A stretch of DNA of 64,000 nt from Candidatus Blackburnbacteria bacterium (GCA_016183565.1 JACPEJ010000001.1:422479-486478); one strand, 5' to 3'; shown: positions 37,443 through 61,001, counted from the stretch's first letter. Numbers and translations are program-made. Notes: generated by a model from the sequence alone, not told the origin.

Positions 37443-38842
37443 TGCATTACTCAAAATACAAGGTGGCGATTGTTGGTTTTGGGGTTGAAGGACAGGATGC
37501 TGCTCGATACTTTTTGGGGCAAGAGAGCAAAAAGATAGTAGTGTTTGATAGAAATCCCGAAGAGAGTTTTAATACAGGGGAGTATGAGAAGAAAGGAGTT
37601 GAGTTTTTCTGCGGTCCGGATTATTTATCTTTGGGTTTGAAGGATTTTGATTACATTGTTCGTTCTCCGGGTGTGTATCGTTACTTGCCAGAAATTGTAG
37701 AAGCAGAAAGGAGTGGTGTTAAAATAATTTCAAACACTCAGCTTTTTTTTGAGGAATCGGAAGCAAATATAATTGGAATAACTGGGACAAAAGGTAAGGG
37801 TACAACAGCAAGGATGCTTGAGGCAGGATTGAAAAGTGCGGGGAAGAAAGTTTTGTTGTTAGGGAATATGGGGACACCGATGCTTGATAGAATTGATGAT
37901 GCGGATACTTTTGATTGGGTAATTTTGGAACTTTCTTCTTTTCAATTGATTGATCTTCCCTATAGTCCTCCGATTGCAATTGTTACAAATATTAAAACGG
38001 ACCATTTGAATTGGCACAAGGACAGAGAAGAATATATACACGCGAAAGAGAATCTTTGGAAGCATCAAAAATCTACTGATTATGTTGTGTTTAATAGAGA
38101 TGATGAGACCTGTCGGGAGTTTGGCAGGAGTGCTGTAGGAAGAGTGATATGGGTTGGGGAAGGGATAGATACAGATACAGATACAGATACAGAAAGAAAA
38201 AGAAAGGGTGGAGTATTTGTGGAAAATGGGGAGGTGGTTGTTCAAGTGAATGAAGTAGTGAATGTTGGCAAGGTTGCAGATTTAAAAGTACCGGGACAAC
38301 ACAATATTGCGAATGCTTTGGGTGCTTTGGTAGGTGGAGTGTTGGCAGGGGGAAATCCAAGTCAGGTTTGGGGGGGGATTTCATCTTTTGAGGGAGTCGA
38401 GCATAGATTAGAAAAAGTTGGAGAGATAGATGGTGTTGTTTATATTAACGATTCGGCAGCAACAACTTCTGAGGCAGCTATTGCTGCTTTGAGGACTTTT
38501 CCAAACCCTAAAGTACTTATTGCCGGTGGATCGCTAAAAGGCGTAGGATTTAAAACACTGGCTCAGGGGATTTTGGAAAATAATGTGAAGAGTGTGATTT
38601 TGATGGGGGAATCTGCGAAAGAGATACAGATACAGATAAAGAAACAGAAGATTAAAGAAGGGGGGAATCTGAAGATTATTAGGGGTATAGAGGAGATGGG
38701 AGAGATAGTTAAGAAGGCAAAGGAGTTGGCAAGGAGCGGTGATATTGTGCTTTTGTCGCCAGGGTGTGCATCGTTTGGACTTTTTAAAGATTATAAGGAT
38801 CGGGGAGATAAGTTTAAGGAAGTGGTGAGTAGGGAAGTATGA
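37442..38842 (+). CDS. murD: UDP-N-acetylmuramoylalanine--D-glutamate ligase
   Basis: 'KVAIVGFGVEGQDAARYF' and P-loop 'GITGTKGKGTTARML'. It contains in-frame (GATACA)n insertions at 38165-38191 (TDTDTDTE) and 38623-38640 (IQIQI). Confidence 0.9.
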   Translation: MHYSKYKVAIVGFGVEGQDAARYFLGQESKKIVVFDRNPEESFNTGEYEKKGVEFFCGPDYLSLGLKDFDYIVRSPGVYRYLPEIVEAERSGVKIISNTQLFFEESEANIIGITGTKGKGTTARMLEAGLKSAGKKVLLLGNMGTPMLDRIDDADTFDWVILELSSFQLIDLPYSPPIAIVTNIKTDHLNWHKDREEYIHAKENLWKHQKSTDYVVFNRDDETCREFGRSAVGRVIWVGEGIDTDTDTDTERKRKGGVFVENGEVVVQVNEVVNVGKVADLKVPGQHNIANALGALVGGVLAGGNPSQVWGGISSFEGVEHRLEKVGEIDGVVYINDSAATTSEAAIAALRTFPNPKVLIAGGSLKGVGFKTLAQGILENNVKSVILMGESAKEIQIQIKKQKIKEGGNLKIIRGIEEMGEIVKKAKELARSGDIVLLSPGCASFGLFKDYKDRGDKFKEVVSREV

Positions 38843-42578: not shown

Positions 42579-43885
42579 TGCGACCAATCATAATCTCATT
42601 ATCGCCCAACACGGAAAGAGATGACGTACTCCTTGCTATCAAAGTTCTTTTCTCTCCATGGTTATGGTTTTCAAAAAGAAACATTCATCTTTTAGAAGAA
42701 AAGTTCCCAAAAATGTTTAGTGGTAATTACAAGTCGTTTGCGACAAATAGCGGACGCAGTGCTCTTTATCTTATCTTAAAAAGTTTAGGAGTTAAAAAGG
42801 ACGATGAGGTTTTATTACAAGCGTTTACTTGTATAGCAGTTCCTAATGCTATTTTGTGGGCTGGAGCTATTCCTGTTTATGTTGATATTGACGAGACTTA
42901 CAACATTGACCCTAAAGATTTAGAGAAAAAAATTACCAAAAAAACAAAAGCGATTATTGTTCAACATACGTTTGGGATTCTTGGGGATGTGGGAGCAATA
43001 AAACGGATTGCTAGAAAAAATAATCTTGTTCTTATAGAAGATTGTGCACATAGCCTGGGAGCTACTTTTAATGGGAAAAGGGTCGGTACTTTAGGCGATG
43101 TAGCATTTTTCAGTTTTGGACGGGATAAAATTTTGTCCTCTGTTTTTGGCGGAATGATACTTGTTAAGACACAGACACAGACAGAGATACAGATACAGAT
43201 ACAGAAGATGTTCAATACACTAAAGTGGCCAAATACACTTTGGGGAATACAACAGCTGTTGCATCCGATTGCGTTTTCTGTTATTTTGCCACTCTATAAT
43301 AGCGGGTTGGGTAAATTAATTTTACTTATACTTCAAAAGTTTCACTTTCTTTCACGCGCTGTGTGCGAAGAAGAAAAAAGAGGTGAACAACCAAAGACAT
43401 TTCCTTCCAGGATGCCACCTGCGTTGTCTGTTTTGGCAATTAAACAATTAACAAAACTTGAAAGGTTTAATCGGCATCGTAGGGAGATAGCTAAGCTCTA
43501 TTTTTCAAAGTTTGCTAATATAGTTAAGGTTTTACCGCCAGATGTGAGTGGTGCAGTTTGGTTGAGGTTTCCAATAAGTATAAACGATGCTTTCGGTTTA
43601 ATAAGTTATGCTAAGAGGCGAGGAATTCTGTTTGGTGATTGGTACAAGAGTGTGGTTATGCCAGCAGAGAACTTGAGTAAAGTTGGTTACACATTTGGTA
43701 CTTGTCCGAATGCAGAAAAATTGTCAAAAATGGTGGTAAATTTGCCGACATACCCGGGGATGAAGGTAGAAGAGGTACTAAAGGTAGTAGAAGTAGTACG
43801 GGAGTGGGAGGGGGAGGAAGGTAAAAGGGGTGGAAAGGGTAATAGGGGTAGTAGAGGAATGGATGGGGCAACAGAGGTAGTATGA
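42575..43885 (+). CDS. DegT/DnrJ/EryC1/StrS-family PLP-dependent aminotransferase
   Basis: 'SGRSALYLILKSLGV...EVLLQAFTCIAVPNAI...AIIVQHTFG' matches the fold-type I sugar aminotransferase family. There is an in-frame (GAYACA)n insertion (TQTQTEIQIQIQ) at 43169-43206 and a Gly/Arg-rich C-terminal tail. Confidence 0.7.
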   Translation: MMRPIIISLSPNTERDDVLLAIKVLFSPWLWFSKRNIHLLEEKFPKMFSGNYKSFATNSGRSALYLILKSLGVKKDDEVLLQAFTCIAVPNAILWAGAIPVYVDIDETYNIDPKDLEKKITKKTKAIIVQHTFGILGDVGAIKRIARKNNLVLIEDCAHSLGATFNGKRVGTLGDVAFFSFGRDKILSSVFGGMILVKTQTQTEIQIQIQKMFNTLKWPNTLWGIQQLLHPIAFSVILPLYNSGLGKLILLILQKFHFLSRAVCEEEKRGEQPKTFPSRMPPALSVLAIKQLTKLERFNRHRREIAKLYFSKFANIVKVLPPDVSGAVWLRFPISINDAFGLISYAKRRGILFGDWYKSVVMPAENLSKVGYTFGTCPNAEKLSKMVVNLPTYPGMKVEEVLKVVEVVREWEGEEGKRGGKGNRGSRGMDGATEVV

Positions 43886-50288: not shown

Positions 50289-50325
50289 TCTTGACAAAGA
50301 GCCTTGTAGTTTGTGCTATAGTGTA
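50289..50325 (+). promoter_or_regulatory. Promoter/RBS module 'cttgacaaagag(c/t)cttgtagttt(g/a)tg(c/a)tatagtgtaag ... aaagctctttgaaaaggagg', duplicated at 59858-59929
   Basis: There is a near-identical 70-nt block at both locations. Confidence 0.5.
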
Positions 50326-50366
50326 AGTGGAGGTTCAATTAAAGCTCTTTGAAAAGGAGGTTGAGC

Positions 50367-50810
50367 GTGGACGCGGGTGTAGCTCTCCTGGTTGTTGGTA
50401 TTCTCCTGCTTGTTGTGGGTGGGTATCAACTGTTACCTCAAGCGCCGTTCGCAGCATACAGGCTTGCTGCAGCGGAGGGGTTTCTTCTTCTACTCGTAGG
50501 TTTGGGTGTAGTGGTTCAACAAAGGAGGATGGCTGTTGTGACAAAGGAAGGCGCTACTGGTTGGCTGGTTGTTGGTGTCATCCTTGCCTTGGTGGGAGTC
50601 CTGGTGTTTATATCACAAGGAGGTGCGGTCGGTGAGTGCCAGACGTTTTTCGGCCAACTTGGGAGAGCGTTGAGTGCTGAGGTTCAACAGCGCTGCAGTA
50701 CAGCAAACCTCCTCCGGACTGTCGGCGGAGTTGTAGCTGTCGGCGGTTTCATCGTCACCCTTGTAGGCATTGTGTGGCTAGCAGCTTCCAGTTCATTAAA
50801 AAGCGCATGA
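50367..50810 (+). CDS. Small polytopic membrane protein with an internal repeat (GTG start). It equals a fusion of the two ORFs at 60458-60688 and 60695-60976.
   Basis: Four Gly/Val/Leu-rich TM segments; the halves align to 'MGAMLLAVGIILLVVGGYQL' and 'VVVTKEGATGWLVVG...' of the second copy. An RBS 'aaaggagg' lies 6 nt upstream of the GTG. Confidence 0.55.
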   Translation: MDAGVALLVVGILLLVVGGYQLLPQAPFAAYRLAAAEGFLLLLVGLGVVVQQRRMAVVTKEGATGWLVVGVILALVGVLVFISQGGAVGECQTFFGQLGRALSAEVQQRCSTANLLRTVGGVVAVGGFIVTLVGIVWLAASSSLKSA

Positions 50811-50833
50811 TGCCGATTGGGGTTTCGTGTTCT

Positions 50834-50987: not shown

Positions 50988-51335
50988 CTAAGTACGATTT
51001 ATCAAGCCAATTATAAGTATGAGGCTGGTGTAAATTACATATACCCAAAAGCTGAATTTCAAAAAGCTCCAGACAGCAGAAGCCTTTTTATTGATTAATC
51101 TTCTTATTAGGGTGAGAAGTATTGGAAGAGGTAGTAGAGCCAAGGCGAATGCCAAGCCTGCTTGGTATGGTTCCACTCCCACAGGAAACGCAAGACCTGC
51201 GATTATGGCCAGTGATAAATACGAAGCAATGATCAGGAGTAAGAAGAGTGCTAAGTTAATCAAGAATCTTACGAAGTTGTCGCTTAGCGTTGTGTTCATT
51301 TTTGTCAAGGGTATGGTATTTCCTAATATTATCAT
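50988..51335 (-). CDS. Hypothetical small membrane protein (3 TM)
   Basis: 115-aa ORF, mostly hydrophobic helices, on the same strand as and downstream of the ECF sigma gene. Confidence 0.35.
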   Translation of the reverse strand: MIILGNTIPLTKMNTTLSDNFVRFLINLALFLLLIIASYLSLAIIAGLAFPVGVEPYQAGLAFALALLPLPILLTLIRRLINKKASAVWSFLKFSFWVYVIYTSLILIIGLINRT

Positions 51336-51380
51336 GTTCTCGAAAGTATTGCAGAAAAAGTCGGATTGAAAAGAAGAATA

Positions 51381-51650
51381 CTTGACACAGAGTTACGTCA
51401 TCGCGTAAAACGAATCAGAATTTGTTTTCAACTGCGTATAAAATGTGTCGAGTGTTGGCGTGTTTGAGTGGCTACCTGTCTCGACTGGCCTGTCTCGTTT
51501 GGTGCAAGCCAAGGTGGACTCCCGAGGTGCAAACCTATTCCACCTCCCAGGTGGAAGATTGTAAGAGTGAGCTTGGTGGTGGGTCGTATACCAAAGGTGT
51601 CAAGCTAATCCACCTCTAAGGTGTCCAAAAGGTGTGCTTGATATACCTTC
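51381..51650. repeat. Cluster of compound REP-like palindromes: a 'cttgacacag...ctgtgtcaag' hairpin, 'gttggcgtg...cactcccgaggtgcaaac', 'attccacctcccaggtggaa', and 'ggtgtcaagctaatccacctctaaggtg'
   Basis: The same modules recur at 53807-53960, 57431-57550, 58664-58765, 59768-59812 and 61105-61152. Confidence 0.6.
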
Positions 51651-52168
51651 TTAAAAGCAAGTTTTGCCCGGTAGAGCCGTCCCTCTATTGCCTTCTCGCT
51701 AACACCCAAAAGCCTCGCTATTTTTTTTAGAGTGAGGTTTTCCCAATATCTGAGGTAAAGTAGTTGCTGCTTATTCGGTGGAAGCAAATTAAAGCATATT
51801 CTTACACTTGCCCTAAGTTCATCAAGTGCCAGTTTTTCCTCAAAAGATAAATCAGTCGTCCCAACTTGGGCAATTTTTTCCAAAACCGGAGCTACAACAA
51901 ACGAATTTTTGTTTACCTGACTTCTGTAATAATCAGCAGTTTTGTTTAATGCAATCCGGCACAACCAAGTAAAATAGCTGCTTTTATTTTTAAATGTATG
52001 CCAACCATGCCATGCCGAGGCCACAGTTTCTGCGAATACTTCCTCAGCAGCTGAGTAATCACCACCCATTTTTTTAAGCAAGAATTTCATTAACGGCAAA
52101 GCAAATTTTCTATACGCTGCTTCAAAATTTTCGTTCTCAAAAGTTTTGATCCGTGGGGTTTTGCTCAT
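51605..52168 (-). CDS. ECF (sigma-24 / RpoE-like) RNA polymerase sigma factor
   Basis: Region 2 'FAETVASAWHGWHTFKNKSSYFTWLCRIALNKTADYYR' and region 4 'LPPNKQQLLYLRYWENLTLKKIARLLGVSEKAIEGRLYRAKLAF'. Start trimmed to MSKTPRIK. Confidence 0.8.
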   Translation of the reverse strand: MSKTPRIKTFENENFEAAYRKFALPLMKFLLKKMGGDYSAAEEVFAETVASAWHGWHTFKNKSSYFTWLCRIALNKTADYYRSQVNKNSFVVAPVLEKIAQVGTTDLSFEEKLALDELRASVRICFNLLPPNKQQLLYLRYWENLTLKKIARLLGVSEKAIEGRLYRAKLAFKKVYQAHLLDTLEVD

Positions 52169-52208
52169 GTACACGACTAATAAAATAATGACAGACAACA
52201 AGTAGTAT

Positions 52209-52655
52209 ATGGTCATTTTAAGAAAAATTGCAATTACAAGTTCGGATACAGTCCCTGAATTTATTGACATAACAAATCGTGTTGAGGAAGAGGTGGGCAA
52301 AAGTGGCATAAAGATTGGGCAGGCTCTAATTTTTTCTCAGCATACGACTGCAGCAATTGTTATTCAAGAGCCAGAGCCAGGTGTACAAAAAGACTTGCAG
52401 GAATTACTTTCTAAAATAGCTCCTAAAAATGGGGACTATAAACATACGTTTGCTCCAGATCATATAAAAGACGGAATGCCAAATGCACACTCTCACTGCC
52501 AACATGCCTTACTTGGCGCATCGCAAACAATACCGATTGTTGATGGACAACTAATGCTTGGTCAGTACCAGAGGATATTTTTGGTAGAACTTGACCGCTC
52601 GCGGGTAAGATTTGTAATCATTCAGATCTTGGGAGATATGAAGCAGTCTTCTTAA
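52209..52655 (+). CDS. YjbQ/UPF0047-family protein (secondary thiamine-phosphate synthase-like)
   Basis: 'ITSSDTVPEFIDITNRV...ALIFSQHTTAAIVIQE...DGMPNAHSHCQHALLGASQTIPIVDGQLMLGQYQRIFLVELD' matches the UPF0047 pattern. Confidence 0.8.
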   Translation: MVILRKIAITSSDTVPEFIDITNRVEEEVGKSGIKIGQALIFSQHTTAAIVIQEPEPGVQKDLQELLSKIAPKNGDYKHTFAPDHIKDGMPNAHSHCQHALLGASQTIPIVDGQLMLGQYQRIFLVELDRSRVRFVIIQILGDMKQSS

Positions 52656-52670
52656 CAGACACAGCTAGAC

Positions 52671-52703
52671 ATAGCCTCGCAAGGTCTCACCTTGCGAGGC
52701 TAT
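52671..52703 (+). terminator. 14-bp perfect stem hairpin 'atagcctcgcaagg-tctca-ccttgcgaggctat'
   Basis: It lies immediately after the yjbQ stop. A related hairpin occurs at 57567-57594, with partial copies at 50921-50940 and 5370-5409. Confidence 0.5.
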
Positions 52704-52788
52704 GTGTATTAGTGTGTATTACAGTGTTAAATAGAATCACTCGGTCTTGACAGAGGGGTGGGGGTTGAATTGAATATTTGCGCTTCAA

Positions 52789-53014
52789 TGATATACTTCT
52801 ATCAGAAGACAGACGGGCTGTCTTTGAGTACTTTAACGTTAGTAGGAAGGGGGTGATGCCCAAAAGAGAGTTTGCCTCTTTTCCCTGCATTGGGCAGGAA
52901 GTGGTTGTGTTTGGTCTGAAAGATCCAGAGCTTGGAGAGAAGTCGACAGACTGGGCACAGCCAGAGGCCTTGGGTTAATAACCCTGTTCAACCTAGACTC
53001 AAGGAGTTAGGGAA
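52789..53014 (+). promoter_or_regulatory. Conserved ~225-nt 5' leader (copy 1). It starts with an extended -10 'tgatatact' and contains hairpins that vary compensatorily between copies.
   Basis: Paralogous leaders at 53985-54186, 55606-55845 and 57648-57875 share blocks 'ttgacgttag..ggaagg.ggtg.t.cccaa.agag...tctcttttcctgcattgggcaggaa.tgg...gtcgaca...gggttaa.aaccct'. Reading frames are not conserved between copies, so conservation is at the RNA level. Confidence 0.5.
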
Positions 53015-53293
53015 ATGTCTGACAGGGACAGTGATCGCTCGAGTGATCGGGACCGTGGTGGTGACCGGGACAGGGACCGTGGCCAGGAGAGAAGTGGAGA
53101 TATCTACGTGTCCGATATTACCGGTAACGCTGGTAACCAGGAAGGCACAACGTCATTTCGCGACGACGGGTCTTCCCACACCAGCGTACACGGAACAGGT
53201 GACAACTCCGGCTGGCATACCTCGTGGGGTACGTCGGATCGCCACAGCGACAGGCACCACACCAAGGACCACCAAGCCGACCGATACCTATAG
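53015..53293 (+). CDS. Small Asp/Arg/Ser/Gly-rich low-complexity protein (paralog family, copy 1)
   Basis: Protein begins 'MSDRDSDRSSDRDRGGDRDRDRG...'. RBS 'aaggag' lies 8 nt upstream. Differences from the 57876 paralog are mostly synonymous, arguing for real translation. Confidence 0.65.
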   Translation: MSDRDSDRSSDRDRGGDRDRDRGQERSGDIYVSDITGNAGNQEGTTSFRDDGSSHTSVHGTGDNSGWHTSWGTSDRHSDRHHTKDHQADRYL

Positions 53294-53319
53294 GTAGGTA
53301 GCTAGACCTGCAGATCCCA

Positions 53320-53365
53320 GAGGGAAGGAGAGCGTAACGCACCATCATTACAACCTCTCCTTCCC
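53320..53365 (+). other. Intergenic hairpin 'agggaaggagag...ctctccttcccc' (12-bp perfect stem) between the DR-rich gene and its helical partner gene
   Basis: Direct reading of the sequence. An analogous hairpin sits at 58204-58272 in the paralogous cassette. Confidence 0.45.
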
Positions 53366-53382
53366 CGACTTAATTTATTCTT

Positions 53383-53769
53383 ATGAAGTCAACCAGCACA
53401 AGAACACCTCTTGAAAATTTTTATTGGAAATACTTAAGAAGCGCTCTAAGGGATTCGAAAACCTTTTCATCTGAAGATGTCACTAAAATATTTTTGAGAG
53501 CCCTTAAAGACTATTTTGTTGGCAAAGCTGAACTTAAAGACGTTAGTATGATAGCAACACAACTATATTACGAAATCCGTGACCCCTTGAGCTTCGGTTA
53601 TCACCACCGTGAATTGGGCAATGCTCTAGAAACCGCAACAGAAATTGATTATGTGTACGGGCATATAAATGAAAGTGAAAAAGCCAGAGAGGAATATGAG
53701 GAGCAACTTGCAAGCTTGAGGGAATTTTATTCTAAGTACAAACACTTAATTGAAAAGGTTGGTAAGTAG
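53383..53769 (+). CDS. Hypothetical ~127-aa alpha-helical protein (paralog family A; partner of the DR-rich protein)
   Basis: Shares 'IFLRALKDYFVGKAELKDVSMIATQLYYEI' with 58284-58664 and 59223-59624. Start context is 'tatgaagtc'. Confidence 0.6.
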   Translation: MKSTSTRTPLENFYWKYLRSALRDSKTFSSEDVTKIFLRALKDYFVGKAELKDVSMIATQLYYEIRDPLSFGYHHRELGNALETATEIDYVYGHINESEKAREEYEEQLASLREFYSKYKHLIEKVGK

Positions 53770-53806
53770 AGGCATTAGCGGAAAGTAAGCAATTACCTTT
53801 TTCTTG

Positions 53807-53960
53807 CTTGATACAAAGTTACGTCATCGCGTAAAACAAATCAGAATTTGTTTTCAACTGCGTATAAAACTGTGTCAAGTGTTGGTGTGTTCGAGCGACC
53901 ACTCCCGAGGTGCCAACTTAATCCACCTCTAAGGTGTCCAGAAAAGGTGTCCAGAAATAT
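53807..53960. repeat. Compound REP-like cluster (same modules as 51381-51650)
   Basis: 'cttgatacaaagttacgtcatcgcgtaaaac...ctgtgtcaagtgttggtgtgttcgagcgaccactcccgaggtgccaacttaatccacctctaaggtgtccag'. Confidence 0.6.
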
Positions 53961-53984
53961 CGAATTACTTGGCCTTGACAGAAA

Positions 53985-54186
53985 TGATATACTTCTTTTA
54001 GAAGGCAGATGATCTGTCTTTGGGCACCTTGACGTTAGTCGGAAGGAGGTGGTACCCAAGAGAGATAGTGTCTCTTTTTCCTGCATTGGGCAGGAACTGG
54101 CTAGGTTTTAGGTTGAGGTCGACAACTTAGGGCTTAGTTGGTAATCCTAGGGTTAACAACCCTACTTGCCCCTTACGAGGTAGATA
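53985..54186 (+). promoter_or_regulatory. Conserved structured 5' leader (copy 2)
   Basis: See 52789-53014. Confidence 0.5.
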
Positions 54187-54495
54187 ATGCCTGATCGGGA
54201 TCGCTCCAGCGACCGCGGTGGTCGGGATTCTGACAGTGGGAGCCGTAGCGGCGATGTCTACTCCTCTGATTTTGCCGATCGTGGTGACTACGAGAGGCAG
54301 GATGGTGGAGTGAGTTTCAGCCGAGATGGTTCGTCAACCCACAACACCGCTGCGGCCAGCAATCCCAGCGAAGACGACAAGGGTGGCCGCTTTAGCTGGG
54401 ACACCGACAGGTACGGTAGAGTTTCCGACCCACACTTTACCGACCAGAACGCAGGGCGGCACGACCGAGACCGCCATCCATTCGGGGATAGGTAG
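54187..54495 (+). CDS. Small Asp/Arg/Ser/Gly-rich low-complexity protein (copy 2)
   Basis: 'MPDRDRSSDRGGRDSDSG...DKGGRFSWDTDRYG...RHDRDRHPFGDR' shares the KGG...(F/I)SWDxD motif with copies 4 and 5. Confidence 0.6.
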   Translation: MPDRDRSSDRGGRDSDSGSRSGDVYSSDFADRGDYERQDGGVSFSRDGSSTHNTAAASNPSEDDKGGRFSWDTDRYGRVSDPHFTDQNAGRHDRDRHPFGDR

Positions 54496-54617
54496 GTCAA
54501 GATCGCGCCGGATTACACTGTGTGATGGCTTGGGGGAGATTGGGATGTCCAATGTGGCCGTCGTACCGCCAAACGACACAAAAACCCAGTCTCCCCCTTC
54601 CACCAAAGATCACTTAG

Positions 54618-54637
54618 TTCACCTCTAAGGTGTCTGA
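54618..54637. repeat. REP-like core 'gttcacctctaaggtgtctg'
   Basis: Member of the dispersed family. Confidence 0.5.
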
Positions 54638-54638
54638 A

Positions 54639-55457
54639 TTAACTCCAAACAACATATCCGTGTGTGATTTTTACTTTATAGACTATGTCTTTAATTTGTT
54701 TTGTTAAAAATTCATATTCTAAATAATCATGACTTTTGCCTTCAATTTCCATGAAGGCGTATCCAACTCTTTTATTATTTTGTAAATATTGCTTGAGTTC
54801 ATCGGAGGAATAAACAGGATCGTTTTTATGTTGGATGTAAAGAGTATAAATGTTATATTTTTGGATCCAGTCATCCACAGCAAAATCATTTTTCCTTACC
54901 CCTCTAATTGGAGTTCCGACAAAAATACATTTGTCTGGTTTGATAGCCCCTTCAAATACTCCCCTCATAGTCAGTAAAGTGCCAGCAGACTTTGCAAAAA
55001 TAATATAGTTTTTCCTGTCTTTTACAAACTCGCTCAATTTATTTAATTCATAATCAAAATCTATTATCTCTTTTCCAGTTTCCCAATGTTTATAATAGTG
55101 AACATAAGTGTCTGGAAAAACTGGTTTTACTTTCTTTTCTATTTTCTCTATCCAACTTTTATTTTTTAGACTATTTCCTCCAAGTAAAATTATTGAAAAT
55201 CTCTTGTCTGGATATTTTGCCTTTTCGTATTTTTTGATAATTCTTTCTACATAATCTGTCTCAGGAACATTTGGAAACTTATCAACTATCTCAAGAGGCA
55301 TAAGATAACGATAATATTTATCACCTTCGTCAATAATAAGTCCCCACCCCCTACCAAAAACATTTACTTTCTTTCTAATTTGCAAAGCCCATTCATAAAC
55401 CTTTTTAAGAGGAACTCTTTTTAATTTTCCAATTTGACCAACTGTTAAAAGTTTCAT
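54639..55457 (-). CDS. Hypothetical protein, possible alpha/beta-hydrolase-like. The gene is AT-rich (Lys-rich) and may be cargo.
   Basis: 272 aa. 'IIFAKSAGTLLTMRG' (G/A-x-S-x-G-like) and a C-terminal 'KSHDY' suggest a serine hydrolase. Codon usage is much more AT-rich than the flanking DR-rich genes. Confidence 0.4.
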   Translation of the reverse strand: MKLLTVGQIGKLKRVPLKKVYEWALQIRKKVNVFGRGWGLIIDEGDKYYRYLMPLEIVDKFPNVPETDYVERIIKKYEKAKYPDKRFSIILLGGNSLKNKSWIEKIEKKVKPVFPDTYVHYYKHWETGKEIIDFDYELNKLSEFVKDRKNYIIFAKSAGTLLTMRGVFEGAIKPDKCIFVGTPIRGVRKNDFAVDDWIQKYNIYTLYIQHKNDPVYSSDELKQYLQNNKRVGYAFMEIEGKSHDYLEYEFLTKQIKDIVYKVKITHGYVVWS

Positions 55458-55550
55458 ATCGTCAAATAGGCAGGCGTCGGACTTGGACCGCCACTTTAAG
55501 AAAGGCTCTTTTTCACCTGCCTATTTGCATTTTAATACAAATTCACAAGT

Positions 55551-55600
55551 ATGCCAACCTAATCCACCTCTAAGGTGTCTAGACCTCTAAGGTGTCTAGA
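55551..55600. repeat. Tandem REP-like cores 'aatccacctctaaggtgtctagacctctaaggtgtctag'
   Basis: Direct reading of the sequence. Confidence 0.55.
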
Positions 55601-55605
55601 TAATA

Positions 55606-55845
55606 TGATATACTTCATTAGAGGCAAAAGACTCGCCTCTAGATAGCACTTTGACGTTGATTGGAAGGAGGTGATACCCAAGAGAAGATACTGTCTCTTT
55701 TTCCTGCATTGGGCAGGAACTGGCTAGGTTTTAAGTTGAGGTCGACAGCCTAGGGCTTAGTCGGAAGTTTTCGGGTTAACCGACCCTGTGACATTCTAAC
55801 CAACTTGCTTGGTTAGGCCTGTCGAGTGTCCCGTAAGGAGGACTA
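55606..55845 (+). promoter_or_regulatory. Conserved structured 5' leader (copy 3)
   Basis: See 52789-53014. It carries the compensatory hairpin 'agaggcaaaagactcgcctct'. Confidence 0.5.
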
Positions 55846-56064
55846 ATGGGACCACAAAAAGGCGGAGGTGAAGGTCGTACCGATTACATAGACGCTGGTG
55901 GGTACGTTCACGAAAGCCCGTCGGAAGCAATTTCGGCAAGCCTGGGATTCGAGTCGGTCTCCGGTACAGGAGCGGGTTGTAGCCAGAGCCCCGACAACGT
56001 TTCTGACGACGGCGACAGCGCTTCTGACAACGGCTCCAGCGACAGCGACGGCAACGACGAGTAG
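55846..56064 (+). CDS. Small highly acidic Ser/Asp/Gly-rich low-complexity protein (copy 3, divergent)
   Basis: 'MGPQKGGGEGRTDYIDAGGYVHE...SDDGDSASDNGSSDSDGNDE'. RBS 'aaggagg' lies 5 nt upstream. Confidence 0.5.
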   Translation: MGPQKGGGEGRTDYIDAGGYVHESPSEAISASLGFESVSGTGAGCSQSPDNVSDDGDSASDNGSSDSDGNDE

Positions 56065-56161
56065 TCTCGCATGGGATGGAGAAAAGGTGGGTCGCCCAAC
56101 CCCTCAAAGCGCAAGCTTACCTTTTCTCCTTTCTTCTTTTTGGGGTAAAATAAGCACAATA

Positions 56162-57373
56162 ATGTCGCCAAAAATTCTACAATCAATTTATTTGAAATAT
56201 CTCCCGCGCTATACATCCGAAGTAAAATCGTTTCAACCTGACAGGCTCCGAAGTTTGATTAAAAAGGCTGCAAAAGATGCTAGAGAAAACTACAAAAAAT
56301 TATCCCAGCCCAAGGCATGCTCTATTGGCCTCTATACCGAAATCTGGGTCGGACAAGAAGTTCGAAAAGACTTAGCAGTTAAAACTCTCAAAAAAATTTC
56401 CGTCGACAATCCTCCGCCAGAATTCAAAGCACAAATAAATTACTTTGCTATCATGCCGCATGAACGGCACGGTGAGCTTAGAAAGAAATTATATGATTCA
56501 CCAATAAACAAACGAGGAGATATTTGGGACAGCTTTAAACTTCCCTTGGATGAAATAGAAAAGCGATTTATACAAATGACAATCTCGCGTAATGAATTTG
56601 CAAAAAGAAAAGGTTATAGATCTTATATTGACATACTTTTAGACAGTCACAAAATACCCCAATCGGATTACAAGAAACTTATTGAGAAATCTGACAAGCT
56701 TATCGGATATTGCAACAGTCAACTACCCAAAATTGGCAAATTGCCAACTTGGTTTTATTCCAAATTTAATATACCTTGTTTTATGTGTCAATTGCCTGTG
56801 TTCCCGTTCAAGACATTGGATGAAACATTCAGCTACTGCGCCAAGAAACATAACGTCTTAGACAAATTCAAATACAAAATAAAGGTTAAGTTGGACGATG
56901 ACTCGAGGATGCTCTATAGAAAGGAAACTGATAGTTTTGAAATAGCCATCAATAAAAATAACAATATTCGTCACCAATCAATTGAGCTTATACACGAACT
57001 TGCCCATGTAATAAATTATCTTCGTGATTTTAAAAAAGAAATTGACCCCCTTGTAGGAGGAGCACGCCTGCACGAAAAAGAAGCATTAGCTGTTGAGCTT
57101 TCTATATTAAAGGAACTATCACCAGAGTTGTTTTATACACACTTTACCGATGCTCTCCTTACTATTCGCCGAACCTTGTTTGAAATTGAACTCTATACTA
57201 ACCCAAAACAAAATTTAAGCAAACTCTACGCCGAAACACTTAATCGTTGTTTTAAAAAAGCAAATCAAAAGGAAAACCCAACCTATTTACTCGACGAGCG
57301 TATTGTGTTGCGCCCTCTCTCCACCTTGCCTCACGCAGTTGCCTATGCAACGTATCTTGACAAAAAGATTTAA
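56162..57373 (+). CDS. Hypothetical protein with an HExxH zinc-metallopeptidase-like motif. The gene is AT-rich and Lys-rich (cargo).
   Basis: 'LIHELAHVINYL' HExxH motif. Start trimmed to MSPKILQS at 56162; the longer GC-rich N-terminal extension overlaps the acidic small ORF in another frame and is probably not translated. Confidence 0.5.
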   Translation: MSPKILQSIYLKYLPRYTSEVKSFQPDRLRSLIKKAAKDARENYKKLSQPKACSIGLYTEIWVGQEVRKDLAVKTLKKISVDNPPPEFKAQINYFAIMPHERHGELRKKLYDSPINKRGDIWDSFKLPLDEIEKRFIQMTISRNEFAKRKGYRSYIDILLDSHKIPQSDYKKLIEKSDKLIGYCNSQLPKIGKLPTWFYSKFNIPCFMCQLPVFPFKTLDETFSYCAKKHNVLDKFKYKIKVKLDDDSRMLYRKETDSFEIAINKNNNIRHQSIELIHELAHVINYLRDFKKEIDPLVGGARLHEKEALAVELSILKELSPELFYTHFTDALLTIRRTLFEIELYTNPKQNLSKLYAETLNRCFKKANQKENPTYLLDERIVLRPLSTLPHAVAYATYLDKKI

Positions 57374-57430
57374 TACATCTAGAGGATTATACCATTTTGG
57401 CTATTGTCTAGGCTAATCATGAAGTCGAAT

Positions 57431-57550
57431 TTGACACAAAGTTATGCGATGACATAGAACTGTGTCAAGTGTTGGCGTGTTCGAGCGGCCACTCCCGAGG
57501 TGCAAACGTATTCCACCTCCCAGGTGGAAGATTCACAGGTGGAAGATTTT
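57431..57550. repeat. Compound REP-like cluster
   Basis: 'tttgacacaaagttatgcgatgacatagaactgtgtcaagtgttggcgtgttcgagcggccactcccgaggtgcaaacgtattccacctcccaggtggaagattcacaggtggaagatt'. Confidence 0.6.
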
Positions 57551-57647
57551 AACAAGTGGTCGTTAAGCTCTTTACGCTTGCAAGGTCTCACCTTGCGAGG
57601 CTAGTTCCTACTTGGTTTCTACTTCTCAAAAAGTGTTTGCACTCCGA

Positions 57648-57875
57648 TGATATACTACATTAGAGGTAAATGCTTGCCTCTAGATAGCACCTTGACGTTA
57701 GCCGGAAGGAGGTGATACCCAAGAGAAGATACTGTCTCTTTTTCCTGCATTGGGCAGGAAGTGGTTGTGTTTGGTCTGAAAGCTCCAGTGGTTGGAGAGA
57801 AGTCGACAGTCTCGGGCTTAAGTTAGAGGCCTTGGGTTAACAACCCTGTTCAACCTAGACTCAAGGAGTTGGGAA
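57648..57875 (+). promoter_or_regulatory. Conserved structured 5' leader (copy 4). Its 3' half is nearly identical to copy 1.
   Basis: See 52789-53014. Confidence 0.5.
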
Positions 57876-58175
57876 ATGTCTGACAGGGACAGTGATCGCT
57901 CCAGCGGTCGTGATCGTGATGGCGACCGTGACCGGGACCGGGACTCCGGCAGCCGGGACCGTGGTGGTGATCTTTACAGCTCCGACTTTGGCGATGATGT
58001 CAAGGGCGGTAACCTTGACCTAGACAAAGGCGGCAAAGGTAAGGATCATGCTAGTGTCTTTGGCGACGACCGCCATTTCTCTTGGGACATCGATACTAAG
58101 ACTGGCGAGGTCTCAAGGGTACATGGTTGGGAGCATCGAGACAAGGACACCGGTCGCGAGCGTAGTCGCTGGTAA
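57876..58175 (+). CDS. Small Asp/Arg/Ser/Gly-rich low-complexity protein (copy 4)
   Basis: 'MSDRDSDRSSGRDRDGDRDRDRDSGSRDRGGD...KGGNLDLDKGGKGKD...RHFSWDIDTKTG'. The N-terminus matches copy 1 with mostly synonymous nucleotide differences. Confidence 0.65.
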   Translation: MSDRDSDRSSGRDRDGDRDRDRDSGSRDRGGDLYSSDFGDDVKGGNLDLDKGGKGKDHASVFGDDRHFSWDIDTKTGEVSRVHGWEHRDKDTGRERSRW

Positions 58176-58283
58176 CCAGGCTAACAACTGAATATGTGAC
58201 TAAGGAGGGGGAGTACTCCATATGGAGATAAAGCGTATGGTCACTACGCAAGGACACAAGTCCTACCCCTCCACCTTTAAAGT

Positions 58284-58664
58284 ATGAAGTCGCTAAATTC
58301 AACAATGTCAAAGTTTGATAGATATTTAAGTGAGACTGTGTTTTCTTCAAAAAACGAGCTGACACAAAAGCAAACAAGAGAGATACTTCTTAGGGCATTA
58401 AAAGACTTTTTCGAAGGCAAGCTCGCTTTAGAGGAACTGGCAAGTATTGCTACTGATATATATTACACTCTGAACAGTCCTTTCAGAATTACAACAGAGT
58501 GGGAACACAGTTTGGGTAATATTCTCGAGAATCTAACCGAAGTTGACTATTATAAAGAGGAAGGAAGAAAAGACAAATATGCTAGGGATATGCATGAGAC
58601 TGTAATGAAAGAACTTGAGGAGTACTACGAAAAGAACAAATGGCGGATTGAGAAGAAAGAATAG
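58284..58664 (+). CDS. Hypothetical ~126-aa alpha-helical protein (paralog family A)
   Basis: 'ILLRALKDFFEGKLALEELASIATDIYYTL'; paralog of 53383-53769. Confidence 0.6.
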   Translation: MKSLNSTMSKFDRYLSETVFSSKNELTQKQTREILLRALKDFFEGKLALEELASIATDIYYTLNSPFRITTEWEHSLGNILENLTEVDYYKEEGRKDKYARDMHETVMKELEEYYEKNKWRIEKKE

Positions 58665-58765
58665 TTGACACAGAGTTACGTTATCGCGTAAAACTATGTC
58701 AAGTGTTGGTGTGTTCGAGCGGCCACTCCCGAGGTGCCAACGTATTCCACCTCCCAGGTGGAATT
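58664..58765. repeat. Compound REP-like cluster
   Basis: 'ttgacacagagttacgttatcgcgtaaaactatgtcaagtgttggtgtgttcgagcggccactcccgaggtgccaacgtattccacctcccaggtggaa'. Confidence 0.6.
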
Positions 58766-58879
58766 GTAGCACATGCTTGACATGACGGAAGGCGACGGCG
58801 TAAAATAGAGCCGGGGAATAAGCGAAAGCAAAGGGAGTAGTACTTTAACACAAAAATCAGCGGCAACTAGGAGGAGCAA

Positions 58880-59155
58880 GTGCCTAGGGATAGCGGACCC
58901 GCTGAACCGGCTGACCTTTTAAGCGATGGCGGGTCAAGCTCGCGGGATAAAGGTGGCGGTATCACTCACGAAACGATCTACGATAGAGAGCGTGGTACCC
59001 ACATCAGCTGGGATCACGACAAGGACGGCGACTACATCTCGGGTTCTGGTCACACTCGCGACGACCGAGCGAAGAGTACCATCTCGGACTGGGATCAAGG
59101 TCGTGATCGAGATCGGGATCGGGATAGAGGAAAGGACAAAGATTACAGGGGATAA
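58880..59155 (+). CDS. Small Asp/Arg/Gly-rich low-complexity protein (copy 5, GTG start, no conserved leader)
   Basis: '...SSRDKGGGITHETIYDRERGTHISWDHDKDGDY...DWDQGRDRDRDRDRGKDKDYRG'. Upstream there is an 'aggagg' RBS and a TTGACA-18 nt-TAAAAT promoter at ~58789-58819. Confidence 0.5.
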   Translation: MPRDSGPAEPADLLSDGGSSSRDKGGGITHETIYDRERGTHISWDHDKDGDYISGSGHTRDDRAKSTISDWDQGRDRDRDRDRGKDKDYRG

Positions 59156-59222
59156 AGGCAAAGGTTGGGGATGGTTCTAGACCTCTGAACAAATGAAAGC
59201 AGAAAGGGTTTCCCTTTAAAAA

Positions 59223-59624
59223 CTACTCTTCCCTTTCTGCCCTACCTTTTGTTTTGTCTTCGTAGAACTCGAGTACGTCTTTGAGGAAACTTAGGAAAAT
59301 AGTATCTAACTTTGGTCTTAAAACCCGTCTGACATAGAAATCCATCTCTTCTCCAGCAATTAAGATATCAAGGAATTCCTTACTGAAACTTTTCTCTTTT
59401 TCTATTGCGTTCCACCACAGCTTTCCTGCAACAAAACTTAAGTCGTCAAGAGATATGGCCTCGTCCATAAAATCTCGTACTGCTTTGAGGAATATTCCCT
59501 CAGTTTGTTTTTCATCTACGTCATCGATTGATACTACGCCAACCGAGTGGAGATACTCTGAAAGCCTTTGTTCTATAAACTCTGTCTTTCTCATTCGTTT
59601 TTCTGGGTGTTGATCCTCTTTCAT
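59223..59624 (-). CDS. Hypothetical ~133-aa alpha-helical protein (paralog family A, convergent orientation)
   Basis: 'IFLKAVRDFMDEAISLDDLSFVAGKLWWNAI' aligns with the (I/L)(F/L)LRALKD(Y/F)F core of the other two paralogs. Confidence 0.55.
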   Translation of the reverse strand: MKEDQHPEKRMRKTEFIEQRLSEYLHSVGVVSIDDVDEKQTEGIFLKAVRDFMDEAISLDDLSFVAGKLWWNAIEKEKSFSKEFLDILIAGEEMDFYVRRVLRPKLDTIFLSFLKDVLEFYEDKTKGRAEREE

Positions 59625-59767
59625 TAGCCAATTATACCATTGTTAAGTCGAAGCTGGCAGTCCTTGTACAGTATCAGAGTTTCGTTGACGTTAGGTAAGT
59701 TGGACTGTGACTTGTTTGCAAGTATCCGGTCTCCAATTATTTGCTGCGGTGTTCTGCCCTTCATTCC

Positions 59768-59812
59768 ATTATACCGGAGGTGCCAACGTATTTCACCTCC
59801 CAGGTGGAAAAT
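59768..59812. repeat. REP-like element 'ccggaggtgccaacgtatttcacctcccaggtggaaaatc'
   Basis: Same family. Confidence 0.55.
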
Positions 59813-59857
59813 CATTGCTTTTGTATGGCTTCTGGTTGGGTTATCAAAATTTTCCTT

Positions 59858-59929
59858 CTTGACAAAGAGTCTTGTAGTTTATGATATAGTGTAAGAGAAG
59901 GTCTAATTAAAGCTCTTTGAAAAGGAGGT
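59858..59929 (+). promoter_or_regulatory. Second copy of the promoter/RBS module seen at 50289-50360
   Basis: Near-identical sequence. Confidence 0.5.
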
Positions 59930-59934
59930 GGGCG

Positions 59935-60429
59935 ATGGCTGGCAATGTACAGGGGCTTTGTTTGTCTCGGCGGCGGTTGGGGTTACTGGCAATAGTTGGT
60001 TCTCCAATCTTTGTTGGTGCATGTGCGTGGGGTGACTCGCCGGAAAAAGCTGCGAAGGAGTGGCTTAGTGCTATCTTCAATTCCAGCTTGGCAGTTGATA
60101 AGAAGGTTGGTGAGCGGACTTGTAGAAGTCAGCAGGAAACAGTGTTATCAATTGTCAAGGTTGGTACATCTGGCTTAGTTGAGCGCTACACTGGTGGCAG
60201 AGTTAAGGTGGCGCAAGTAACCACAGTAAGCGTGGGCATCTACAGCTTCTTCTTTGAGACTCTTGCTGTCGTGGGTGATGTTGCCGAGGTACGTGCTCGC
60301 GGGACGTTTGGTTTTACTACGCGTAGTTCTTCGCAAACTATTGAGGTTGACGAGGTATGGCGGATGATCCGCGAAGGAGGGATATGGAAGTGGTGTGGAC
60401 TAGCTTCGTCGGCCTCTAAGCTGCGTTGA
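59935..60429 (+). CDS. Putative lipoprotein
   Basis: Signal peptide with lipobox-like 'LAIVGSPIFVGAC', preceded by RBS 'aaaggagg'. It is present only in the second copy of the duplicated module. Confidence 0.5.
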   Translation: MAGNVQGLCLSRRRLGLLAIVGSPIFVGACAWGDSPEKAAKEWLSAIFNSSLAVDKKVGERTCRSQQETVLSIVKVGTSGLVERYTGGRVKVAQVTTVSVGIYSFFFETLAVVGDVAEVRARGTFGFTTRSSSQTIEVDEVWRMIREGGIWKWCGLASSASKLR

Positions 60430-60457
60430 CTTGGCTGCGTAGTGGAAGGAGGAGCTG

Positions 60458-60688
60458 ATGGGAGCTATGCTTTTGGCTGTCGGGATTATCCTCTTGGTTG
60501 TTGGGGGATACCAACTGATGTCCATTGGTTCCCAGTACCCGGCTTTTGCAACGCCTGCTCAGGTTCTAGGGGAAGTAGAGGTGCAGCTAAACCTATGGCG
60601 GATTGTTGCTCTGGGTGGGCTTGTTTCGATAGCCGTGGGGCTTGTCATGTTGCTCCGTCGGCCGTCCAAGCCCACTTCACTATCCTAG
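60458..60688 (+). CDS. Small 2-TM membrane protein (homologous to the N-terminal half of 50367-50810)
   Basis: 'MGAMLLAVGIILLVVGGYQLM...' with RBS 'ggaaggagg'. Confidence 0.5.
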   Translation: MGAMLLAVGIILLVVGGYQLMSIGSQYPAFATPAQVLGEVEVQLNLWRIVALGGLVSIAVGLVMLLRRPSKPTSLS

Positions 60689-60694
60689 AGGAGG

Positions 60695-60976
60695 ATGGTT
60701 GTCGTGACAAAGGAAGGTGCTACTGGTTGGCTGGTGGTTGGTGCCGTCCTTGCCTTGGTAGGTGTTCTGGTATTTCTGGCACAAGGGAGTACGGTGGGTG
60801 AGTGCCAAACGTTTCTAGGGCAGTTGGGTCGAGCTCTGAGTCCAGAGGTTCAGCAGCGCTGTGGTACAGCGAACCTTCTCCGGACTGTCGGCGGAGTTGT
60901 AGCTGTTGGTGGGGTTATTGTAGCTCTAGTTGGCATTGTGCGGCTGGCAGCTTCTAGTACGTCAGAGAAAACGTGA
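60695..60976 (+). CDS. Small 2-TM membrane protein (homologous to the C-terminal half of 50367-50810)
   Basis: 'MVVVTKEGATGWLVVGAVLALVGVLVF...GECQTFLGQLGRALSPEVQQRCGTANLLRTVGGVVAVGG' is about 90% identical to the first copy. Confidence 0.5.
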   Translation: MVVVTKEGATGWLVVGAVLALVGVLVFLAQGSTVGECQTFLGQLGRALSPEVQQRCGTANLLRTVGGVVAVGGVIVALVGIVRLAASSTSEKT

Positions 60977-61001
60977 TCGCCCGACTCGGTCTCTCATCTC
61001 T

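Follow-up and report, generated by a model that had tools for sequence, protein, structure and literature searches.

A repeated promoter-leader unit with predicted hairpins and a start-less Shine-Dalgarno-like sequence precedes four small-protein genes in Candidatus Blackburnbacteria

What is the conserved leader of about 200 nt that precedes four small genes in a chromosome segment of Candidatus Blackburnbacteria (Patescibacteria, Microgenomates group), and at what level would it act? The window analysed here, a stretch of 64,000 nt (GCA_016183565.1 JACPEJ010000001.1:422479-486478), is a bacterial chromosome segment that carries a mur/fts cell-division cluster (FtsW, MurG, FtsA). Bacteria of the candidate phyla radiation (CPR) have tiny genomes and few recognisable regulators, and to our knowledge almost nothing is known of their post-transcriptional control. 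An initial annotation of the window had proposed that the leader is a cis-regulatory RNA, either a riboswitch or thermometer-like. By our analysis the leader is a genuine element, not described before and narrowly distributed, known from its sequence and from folding predictions. Tentatively, and with slightly less than even confidence, we favour the reading that it belongs to a lineage-specific portable cassette, in which an extended -10 promoter is joined to a structured 5' leader acting on mRNA stability or ribosome loading.

The cassette is present in four copies on the + strand, at 52789-53014 (copy 1), 53985-54186 (copy 2), 55606-55845 (copy 3) and 57648-57875 (copy 4), and each copy starts with ATGATATACT and ends at the ATG of a small-protein gene. 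In the window, ATGATATACT was found without mismatch only at 52788, 53984, 55605 and 57647, in agreement with the initial annotation, which had placed a -10-like element at these four starts. The distance from the -10 element TGATATACT (52789-52797, 53985-53993, 55606-55614 and 57648-57656) to the ATG was 226, 202, 240 and 228 nt in copies 1 to 4, respectively. The shared, ordered blocks described in the same annotation were also recovered: CCTGCATTGGGCAGGAA, which belongs to predicted hairpin P4, occurs four times in the window against 0.12 expected, and GGAAGG.GGTG.T.CCCAA.AG occurs four times against 0.00 expected. Moreover, ACGTT, the Shine-Dalgarno (SD)-like GGAAGG block, CCCAA, P4, GTCGACA and GGGTTAA lie at near-fixed offsets in all four leaders (alignments A1, A2 and A6). 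A covariance model of the core, R1, recovered only the four leader sites in the window, with 92.9-104.3 bits, the next best site scoring 12 bits (E ~0.7). A terminator-like hairpin precedes each leader.

The identity between copies was 59-82% for the leaders and 78-98% for the core (+40 to +120). The coding sequences reached 30-57% and the 150-nt flanks 16-51%. Identity rises abruptly at the -10 element, and the unit is more conserved than the genes or the flanks. A 1-nt indel causes the conserved block to be read in different frames in copies 1 and 2 versus copies 3 and 4, and a 20-nt indel sets copies 1 and 4 apart from copies 2 and 3. The length and stop position of the open reading frames (ORFs) in the leaders vary among copies, and no antisense ORF common to all four leaders was found. 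Since the unit is bounded by a promoter, is better conserved than the genes, precedes a non-homologous gene at copy 3 and contains a hairpin (P5) that folds on the + strand only, the results support the view that the conservation acts on the non-coding + strand transcript. These results bear out two proposals of the initial annotation, namely that the reading frame shifts between copies and that a cis-acting leader is conserved at the RNA level.

According to folding predictions, all four copies can form six hairpins, P1 to P6, at matching offsets. P1 (52805-52825, 54001-54021, 55618-55642 and 57660-57683 in copies 1 to 4) begins 7-11 nt after TATACT, close to the predicted transcription start. 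This first hairpin had been described as carrying compensatory changes. It does fold in both of its sequence versions (copies 1 and 2; copies 3 and 4), at -9 to -11 kcal/mol, but because the two cannot be aligned base by base they represent alternative versions and not compensatory substitutions. P2 (52829-52855, 54025-54051, 55647-55673 and 57688-57714) pairs CACCUU, a mimic of the 16S tail, with GAGGUG, and the four substitutions in its stem all retain pairing, through G.U. P3 (52862-52882, 54058-54078, 55680-55699 and 57721-57740) and P4 (52883-52900, 54078-54096, 55701-55719 and 57742-57760) are essentially invariant. P6 (52972-52984, 54150-54162, 55773-55786 and 57834-57846) reads GGGUU-AAC-AACCC in every copy. 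A strain variant of the copy-1 locus, L022 (Logan SRR4343435, compared with 52880-53420 of the window), carries GGGCU-AAC-AGCCU, in which a U-A pair is swapped for C-G. Downstream of P6, the real SD lies within a 7-8-bp hairpin in copy 1 (52992-53011), copy 4 (57854-57873) and L022, with a bulged G in copies 1 and 4; it is paired in copy 2 (SD region 54162-54183), and in copy 3, which has an extra hairpin at 55796-55816, the AUG is paired (SD/AUG hairpin 55828-55852).

P5 lies at 52902-52963 in copy 1 (a 17-bp stem plus an inner hairpin), 54097-54141 in copy 2 (19 bp, 8 G.U), 55720-55764 in copy 3 and 57762-57825 in copy 4. In copies 1 to 3 it forms a stem of 17-19 bp, of which 5-8 pairs are G.U, with a conserved apical loop GUCGA. 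Relative to shuffled sequences, its energy in copies 1, 2 and 3 had z-scores of -3.8, -4.8 and -3.0 on the + strand, compared with -1.2, -0.8 and -1.9 on the - strand, and wherever the arms are non-complementary at the DNA level, the + strand RNA forms a G.U pair. Both arms differ between copy 1 and copies 2 and 3, with pairing retained. In the basal 12 bp, 93.8% of the cells of the alignment were paired, with three pairs changed on both sides and eight extra pair types, while sliding the 3' partner by 1-3 columns as a control left 9-63% of the cells paired. The whole leaders were 10-23 kcal/mol more stable on the + strand. No closing helix or multi-helix junction is conserved across the copies; a long-range CCCAAG/CUUGGG closing helix was considered and rejected, being found in copies 1 and 4 only.

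The 3' part of P2 overlaps a 13-nt SD-like sequence, GGAAGGAGGTGAT (GGAAGG(A/G)GGUG(A/G)U in RNA), at 52845-52857, 54041-54053, 55663-55675 and 57704-57716 in copies 1 to 4, which we call the decoy SD. It is complementary to 13 nt of the canonical 16S tail. The predicted pairing energy was -22.0 to -22.6 kcal/mol, with the canonical tail assumed and the host's own tail not in the window; for the 53 real start sites of the window, the same calculation gave -12.0 kcal/mol at best and a median of -6.1 kcal/mol. The function proposed below requires that the host 16S 3' tail reads ...AUCACCUCCUU(U)C. The 11-mer AAGGAGGTGAT, with 0-1 mismatch allowed, was found in the leaders and at one further site of the window, 30076. 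The decoy SD has two variant positions, both A to G, and pairing with a pyrimidine partner would be kept at each. It lies 158-171 nt upstream of the ATG, and no ATG, GTG or TTG is found 4-10 nt after GGAGG in any copy. Because no start codon stands at a usable distance, the decoy SD cannot serve as a normal start site.

The same observation bears on the possibility that a leader peptide is translated from the decoy SD, or that the leader encodes an independent small RNA or attenuator ending at P4. ORFs of 18-42 codons do follow the decoy SD, but besides lacking a start codon at the proper distance they vary in frame, length and sequence among the copies, and their translations show no similarity to the small proteins encoded downstream. 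An end at P4 would be consistent with copy 4, in which P4 followed by GUGGUUGUGUUU scores as terminator-like. However, this is the only copy with such a site, the U-rich tail is absent in copies 2 and 3, and the terminator count (9, versus 7.2 in shuffles) shows no excess. A leader peptide or attenuator is rejected, and these explanations as a group are very improbable. A decayed 5' end of a paralogous gene was also considered as the origin of the leader and rejected, as comparing the small genes with the leaders by tblastn and blastn gave nothing significant.

In the cassette reading that we favour, an extended -10 element (TGnTATACT) and a structured leader of ~190-225 nt would head four operons of tiny orphan proteins, and the leader would work in cis after transcription. 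We infer the transcription start, the docking of 30S subunits and the effect on stability or translation as follows. P1, within a few nt of the predicted 5' end, would be a 5'-terminal hairpin that protects the mRNA. In P2, the CACCUU mimic of the 16S tail would pair with the decoy SD GGAAGGAGGUGAU. The decoy SD would dock a 30S subunit, which would likewise shield the mRNA and/or serve as a standby ribosome for the real start, predicted to be partly occluded. P5 would present its GUCGA loop, P6 would form a short hairpin, and the final hairpin would involve the real ribosome-binding site. The four operons would thereby receive a common expression setting, and the copies would be kept alike partly by RNA selection and partly by gene conversion. 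In addition, the P2-P6 array may perhaps be a platform for a trans-acting factor.

This model has counterparts among known leaders. The polypurine stabiliser of ermC is a 5' mRNA stabiliser of Gram-positive bacteria. According to a passage in PMC12970973 (citing Agaisse and Lereclus 1996), STAB-SD, an SD-like element that precedes cry3A by ~125 nt, is believed to confer mRNA stability via 30S binding. PMC5737220 and references therein describe the 5' stem-loop of aprE, together with ribosome binding, as a 5' stabiliser of this type, and the strong SD of hbs as blocking RNase J1. The present leader resembles STAB-SD in having an SD-like sequence that lies far from the start codon and is not followed by one of its own. 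It would also resemble the 5' stabilisers in a complementarity to the 16S 3' end that is predicted to be strong with a canonical tail, and in a hairpin at the predicted 5' end of the transcript. Unlike these systems, it has a decoy SD of 13 nt that forms part of a hairpin with a 16S-tail mimic and lies ~45 nt from the predicted 5' end, followed by ~130 nt more of conserved hairpins. Furthermore, it shows no sequence homology to them, its host belongs to the CPR, and it is known here from sequence and folding predictions. The leader is also comparable with ribosome standby sites, such as that in the tisB 5' untranslated region (UTR), since its upstream site could load a 30S subunit before the structured real ribosome-binding site. 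However, known standby sites are unstructured stretches and not perfect SD sequences, and the distance from the decoy to the real site is 150-185 nt here.

Several results weigh against the cassette reading. The transcript and the 5' end of the leader are predicted. P3 and P4 never vary and are therefore uninformative on structure. P5 is degenerate in copy 4, with two U.U mismatches and two bulges (z = +1.0), and a hand-built helix in this copy reached -6 to -9 kcal/mol versus -11 kcal/mol for the minimum free energy structure. The z-scores of the whole leaders were modest in copies 3 and 4. The covariation analysis proposed in the initial annotation gave counts below significance with four to five sequences, shuffles reaching the observed value in 57 of 500 trials for P5, 94 of 500 for P2 and 205 of 500 for P6. 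For this reason the structure of the leader RNA, which folding and pair-keeping changes support at a suggestive level, falls short of proof. The decoy SD is partly sequestered in P2, with a predicted unpaired probability of 0.2-0.4, it does not lie at the predicted 5' end itself, and its figure of -22 kcal/mol depends on the canonical tail because the host tail is outside the window. Moreover, three relatives (L001, L007 and L008) encode homologs of the small proteins behind the same type of -10 element, and their leaders are unrelated. Finally, the recombination among leaders described below means that high identity is possible without strong purifying selection.

How widely the leader is distributed was investigated in several collections. 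In Rfam 15 (4227 families), no match was obtained at the gathering score over the whole window, and a search at E<=10 over 51300-59300 gave a single chance match, mir-4433, on an unrelated hairpin. The families without a match include T-box, ROSE, fourU, cspA, ykkC and ydaO, and the initial annotation, too, had recognised no known riboswitch class. Degenerate pattern scans of 185,579 species-representative genomes found no homolog, and a two-block pattern had 0 matches in JGI metagenome contigs. A looser core pattern had 12 metagenome matches and one viral match, all attributable to chance by R1 (E>=1), and R1 scoring of the scan candidates from genome, metagenome and viral contigs gave E>=0.09. 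The viral 17-mer matches spanned the P4 hairpin only, and blastn against phage genomes gave no match. The search for homologs with a covariance model and metagenomes, which the initial annotation had advised, thus yielded none outside the species. For the small-protein and neighbour families, close relatives number only 2-7, and the 127-aa neighbour family had no match in the species-representative genomes. Upstream of the homologous genes in the relatives, TGTTATACT or TATATACT was found, and in a distant relative, L003, the leader is not present. P2/P3 blocks seemingly shared by the L007 leader were rejected, as the z-score in a shuffle test was 2.6 at best and R1 gave no support.

Within the species, Logan contigs L002 and L004-L006, from the same organism, are identical to the window, break inside the repeat and carry no information on microdiversity. 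In L022, the coding sequence beyond ~+75 is 100% identical to the window, the comparison extending over the gene and its 3' hairpin, while the leader, together with the initial 70 nt of the coding sequence, forms a different mosaic, with a P5 of the copy-3 type and a linker of the copy-2 type. The four copies are themselves mosaic, the type of P1 grouping copies 1 and 2 against 3 and 4 and the 20-nt indel grouping copies 1 and 4 against 2 and 3. These two patterns show active recombination or gene conversion among the leaders, and part of the leader conservation may reflect concerted evolution.

The main rival to the cassette reading goes further and holds that concerted evolution is the only force at work, the promoter/5' region of a tandemly duplicated gene family being held alike by gene conversion and its hairpins having no specific regulatory role other than bearing a promoter and a ribosome site. 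The mosaic copies, the L022 variant, the lack of a homolog outside the species, the orthologs without leader in relatives and the non-significant covariation statistics are all consistent with it. However, it leaves unexplained that the imperfections of the P5 arms are exclusively G.U and that folding is confined to the + strand, that double changes keep pairs in P5 and P6, that the unit was transferred with sharp edges to the unrelated gene of copy 3, and that a perfect 13-nt SD without start codon is kept in all four copies. We therefore regard concerted evolution as rather unlikely to be the whole explanation.

The high identity of the P2-P4 core (78-98%, loops included) could also reflect co-regulation of the four operons by a trans-acting regulator bound to the core, which would be either a small RNA or a protein, for instance a GGA binder of the CsrA type. 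Each leader contains six GGA motifs, the real SD among them, the palindromic GUCGAC and the AUUGG loop are invariant, and CCCAA could pair with UUGGG of the P4 loop. This explanation is quite unlikely in our judgement, because no regulator gene was identified in the window, the predicted duplexes between the leader and a neighbouring repeat element were no better than those of shuffles, and the invariance is explicable by recent conversion.

Could the leader instead sense a signal by itself? A riboregulator built on the decoy SD would sense free 30S subunits, or a ligand or protein, and would act as the switch of a regulon of tiny beta-hairpin proteins specific to CPR bacteria. In such a device the decoy SD would exchange the 16S-tail mimic of P2 for the pyrimidine tract CUCUUUUUCC, a sequence able to mask the real SD as well. 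We consider this improbable. A riboswitch of a new class, responding to a metabolite or second messenger as the initial annotation had suggested, would likewise be served by alternative pairing of CUCUUUUUCC with the decoy or the real SD. It would also fit a long, conserved and structured leader with invariant loops and linkers, in which a CCCAA/UUGGG linker-loop pseudoknot is possible. The riboswitches and thermometers of Rfam 15 are, like the present leader, cis-acting structured 5' leaders in which anti-SD/SD pairing is possible. However, 0 of the 4227 families matched, the leader was found in one species only and is replaced by unrelated sequences in front of the orthologs in relatives, no closing helix or junction is conserved, the genes are orphan mini-protein genes with no metabolic link, and there is no conserved intrinsic terminator. 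Since Rfam match, phylogenetic breadth, conserved junction and metabolic gene context are all missing, a riboswitch is quite improbable. A T-box was rejected separately, as GGUGGUACC is present in copy 2 only and not conserved, and no T-box match was obtained in Rfam.

The thermometer suggestion can be addressed through the hairpin at the real SD, which would melt with temperature to expose the SD or AUG. Its 7-8 bp in copies 1 and 4 and L022, and the pairing of the SD in copy 2 and of the AUG in copy 3, are compatible with this idea. However, the predicted unpaired probability of the SD was flat from 4 to 45 C (0.30-0.38; 0.83 in copy 3), and the thermometer is therefore not supported in silico. 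The SD-proximal part is also the least conserved part of the leader, Rfam gave no ROSE, fourU or cspA match, and 150 nt of conserved upstream structure would be left unexplained. A thermometer thus appears highly improbable. A partial likeness exists to the 5' UTRs of the cspA family, which are conserved beyond the need of a promoter and act on mRNA stability and translation, in that a long 5' UTR is common to several paralogous small-protein genes in one genome. The present leader differs from them in having no Rfam match, no cold-box-like sequence, no cold-shock domain proteins and no predicted temperature response.

The unit was also compared with mobile repeats. Correia elements, which are miniature inverted-repeat transposable elements, are similar as ~200-nt, multi-copy intergenic modules that supply a promoter and a long 5' UTR hairpin. 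In contrast to them, the leader unit has no terminal inverted repeats or target-site duplications, and its orientation and position relative to the gene start are constant. A Correia-like repeat was rejected, since no inverted repeat joins the ends of the unit in any copy.

The genes behind the leaders, all on the + strand, encode a small hydrophilic D/R/S/G-rich protein of 92 aa (protein 1, 53015-53293, copy 1), a small hydrophilic protein of 102 aa (protein 2, 54187-54495, copy 2), a small acidic protein of 72 aa (protein 3, 55846-56064, copy 3) with no clear homology to the others, and a small hydrophilic protein of 99 aa (protein 4, 57876-58175, copy 4). The next gene after that of protein 3 encodes a 403-aa HExxH protein (56162-57373). 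Proteins 1, 2 and 4 are paralogs of 92-102 aa in which the N-terminus is disordered and D/R/S/G-rich and an FSWD motif lies in the conserved C-terminal part. The downstream small proteins matched no Pfam or NCBIfam family. An AlphaFold model of a small protein is a four-strand beta-meander of medium confidence (predicted local distance difference test score ~80-85 over residues 40-88), and a fold search with it in the PDB gave no significant match. A profile search of 1.84 billion representatives found only 68 relatives, of which about half are stand-alone proteins (63-148 aa); in the remainder, RCC1-repeat proteins, the match covers one blade of 30 residues. The small proteins may thus be single-blade mini-proteins. 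Because there is no Pfam or NCBIfam family, no PDB match and few relatives, the regulated genes give no clue to a signal.

A fifth paralog (58880-59155), whose protein matches NCBI entry HYU80_02490 of a Candidatus Blackburnbacteria metagenome-assembled genome, has a different, short leader. This leader (at 58836-58850) and the P2 5' arm of copy 1 (52828-52838) have GTACTTTAAC in common, a marginal similarity (E ~0.06), and its UACUU can pair with AAGUG, which contains the GUG start codon. It may be a simpler relative of P2. Three paralogous orphan helical proteins of 126-133 aa are encoded next to the small-protein genes, at 53383-53769, 58284-58664 and 59223-59624 (- strand), and the product of 58284-58664 matches HYU80_02485. 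The pairing of helical and small proteins also occurs in relatives L001 and L007. Among 5.8 billion protein clusters the helical family counts only ~7 members, and the species-representative genomes contain none. No recognisable SD was found ahead of the next genes at 53383, 56162 and 58284.

In the window and in the relatives, every small-protein gene is followed on its 3' side by a hairpin of 10-12 bp whose large loop separates a purine-rich 5' arm from a pyrimidine-rich 3' arm. These hairpins lie at 53327-53367, ~54531-54600, 56080-56130, ~58205-58275 and 59198-59245 in the window, and at 1516-1560 in L001, ~500-555 in L007 and 1128-1170 in L008. Their sequence differs each time (e.g., GGGAAGGAGAG...CTCTCCTTCCC), some are followed by a U-run, and they probably act as terminators or attenuators. 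Since the leader's decoy SD is complementary to the pyrimidine arm, pairing between the 5' and 3' UTRs is conceivable.

The leaders sit within 10 kb occupied by small orphan genes and numerous short repeats, a region that is bracketed by a duplicated promoter region (90% identical) and membrane-protein gene (80% identical) at 50289-50811 and 59857-60977. GC skew is +0.15 to +0.40 over 1-50 kb and falls to ~0 over 52-58 kb, and by this measure the 52-58 kb stretch looks like a variable island. A strong hairpin, TAGCCTCGCAAGGT-ctc-ACCTTGCGAGGCTA, lies at 52672-52702, 3' of a YjbQ-family gene, and a related copy lies at ~57578-57600 upstream of leader copy 4; both look like terminators that insulate the leader promoters. 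Elsewhere in the window, (GATACA)n-type hexamer repeats at 34442-34621, 38155-38663 and 43155-43220 lie within three large + strand ORFs, where they presumably encode low-complexity linker segments.

Two further kinds of repeat were observed in the window. The hairpin CACCT(C/T)NNAGGTG occurs at 13 sites (24665, 25425, 31426, 36394, 51541, 51611, 53924, 54620, 55565, 57514, 58748, 59794 and 61124) against 0.06 expected, and those checked are mostly intergenic or at gene ends. At 6 of the 13 sites it is preceded by GAGGTG(C/T)CAA, whose GAGGUG pairs with CACCUC inside a larger hairpin. The anti-SD-like CACCUCC is part of the element, which is probably the host's terminator or a repetitive extragenic palindromic-like element. 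The second is a repeat of ~100-140 nt at 51375-51640, 53801-53985, 57395-57650 and 58655-58790, with a partial copy at 59738-59815. It has its own promoter-like TTGACA-N17/18-TAAAAC and a conserved body TGTCAAGTGTTGG(T/C)GTGTTCGAGCGGCCACTCCCGAGGTGCCAAC, ends in the CACCT(C/T)NNAGGTG hairpin, and carries a 44-nt insertion in its first copy. The repeat, a candidate small RNA gene, directly precedes leader copies 2 and 4 as well as the fifth small gene. Its pairing with the leaders was considered and rejected, since duplex prediction showed no special complementarity relative to shuffles.

The practical value of the leader is limited, as it seems confined to one species-level lineage. For the organism, four copies of a 200-nt leader are a sizeable investment on an assembled contig of ~0.7 Mb. 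If docking of 30S subunits on the decoy SD does set mRNA stability, a co-regulated set of orphan mini-proteins would be defined, and the principle of STAB-SD and the 5' stabilisers would extend well beyond Firmicutes.

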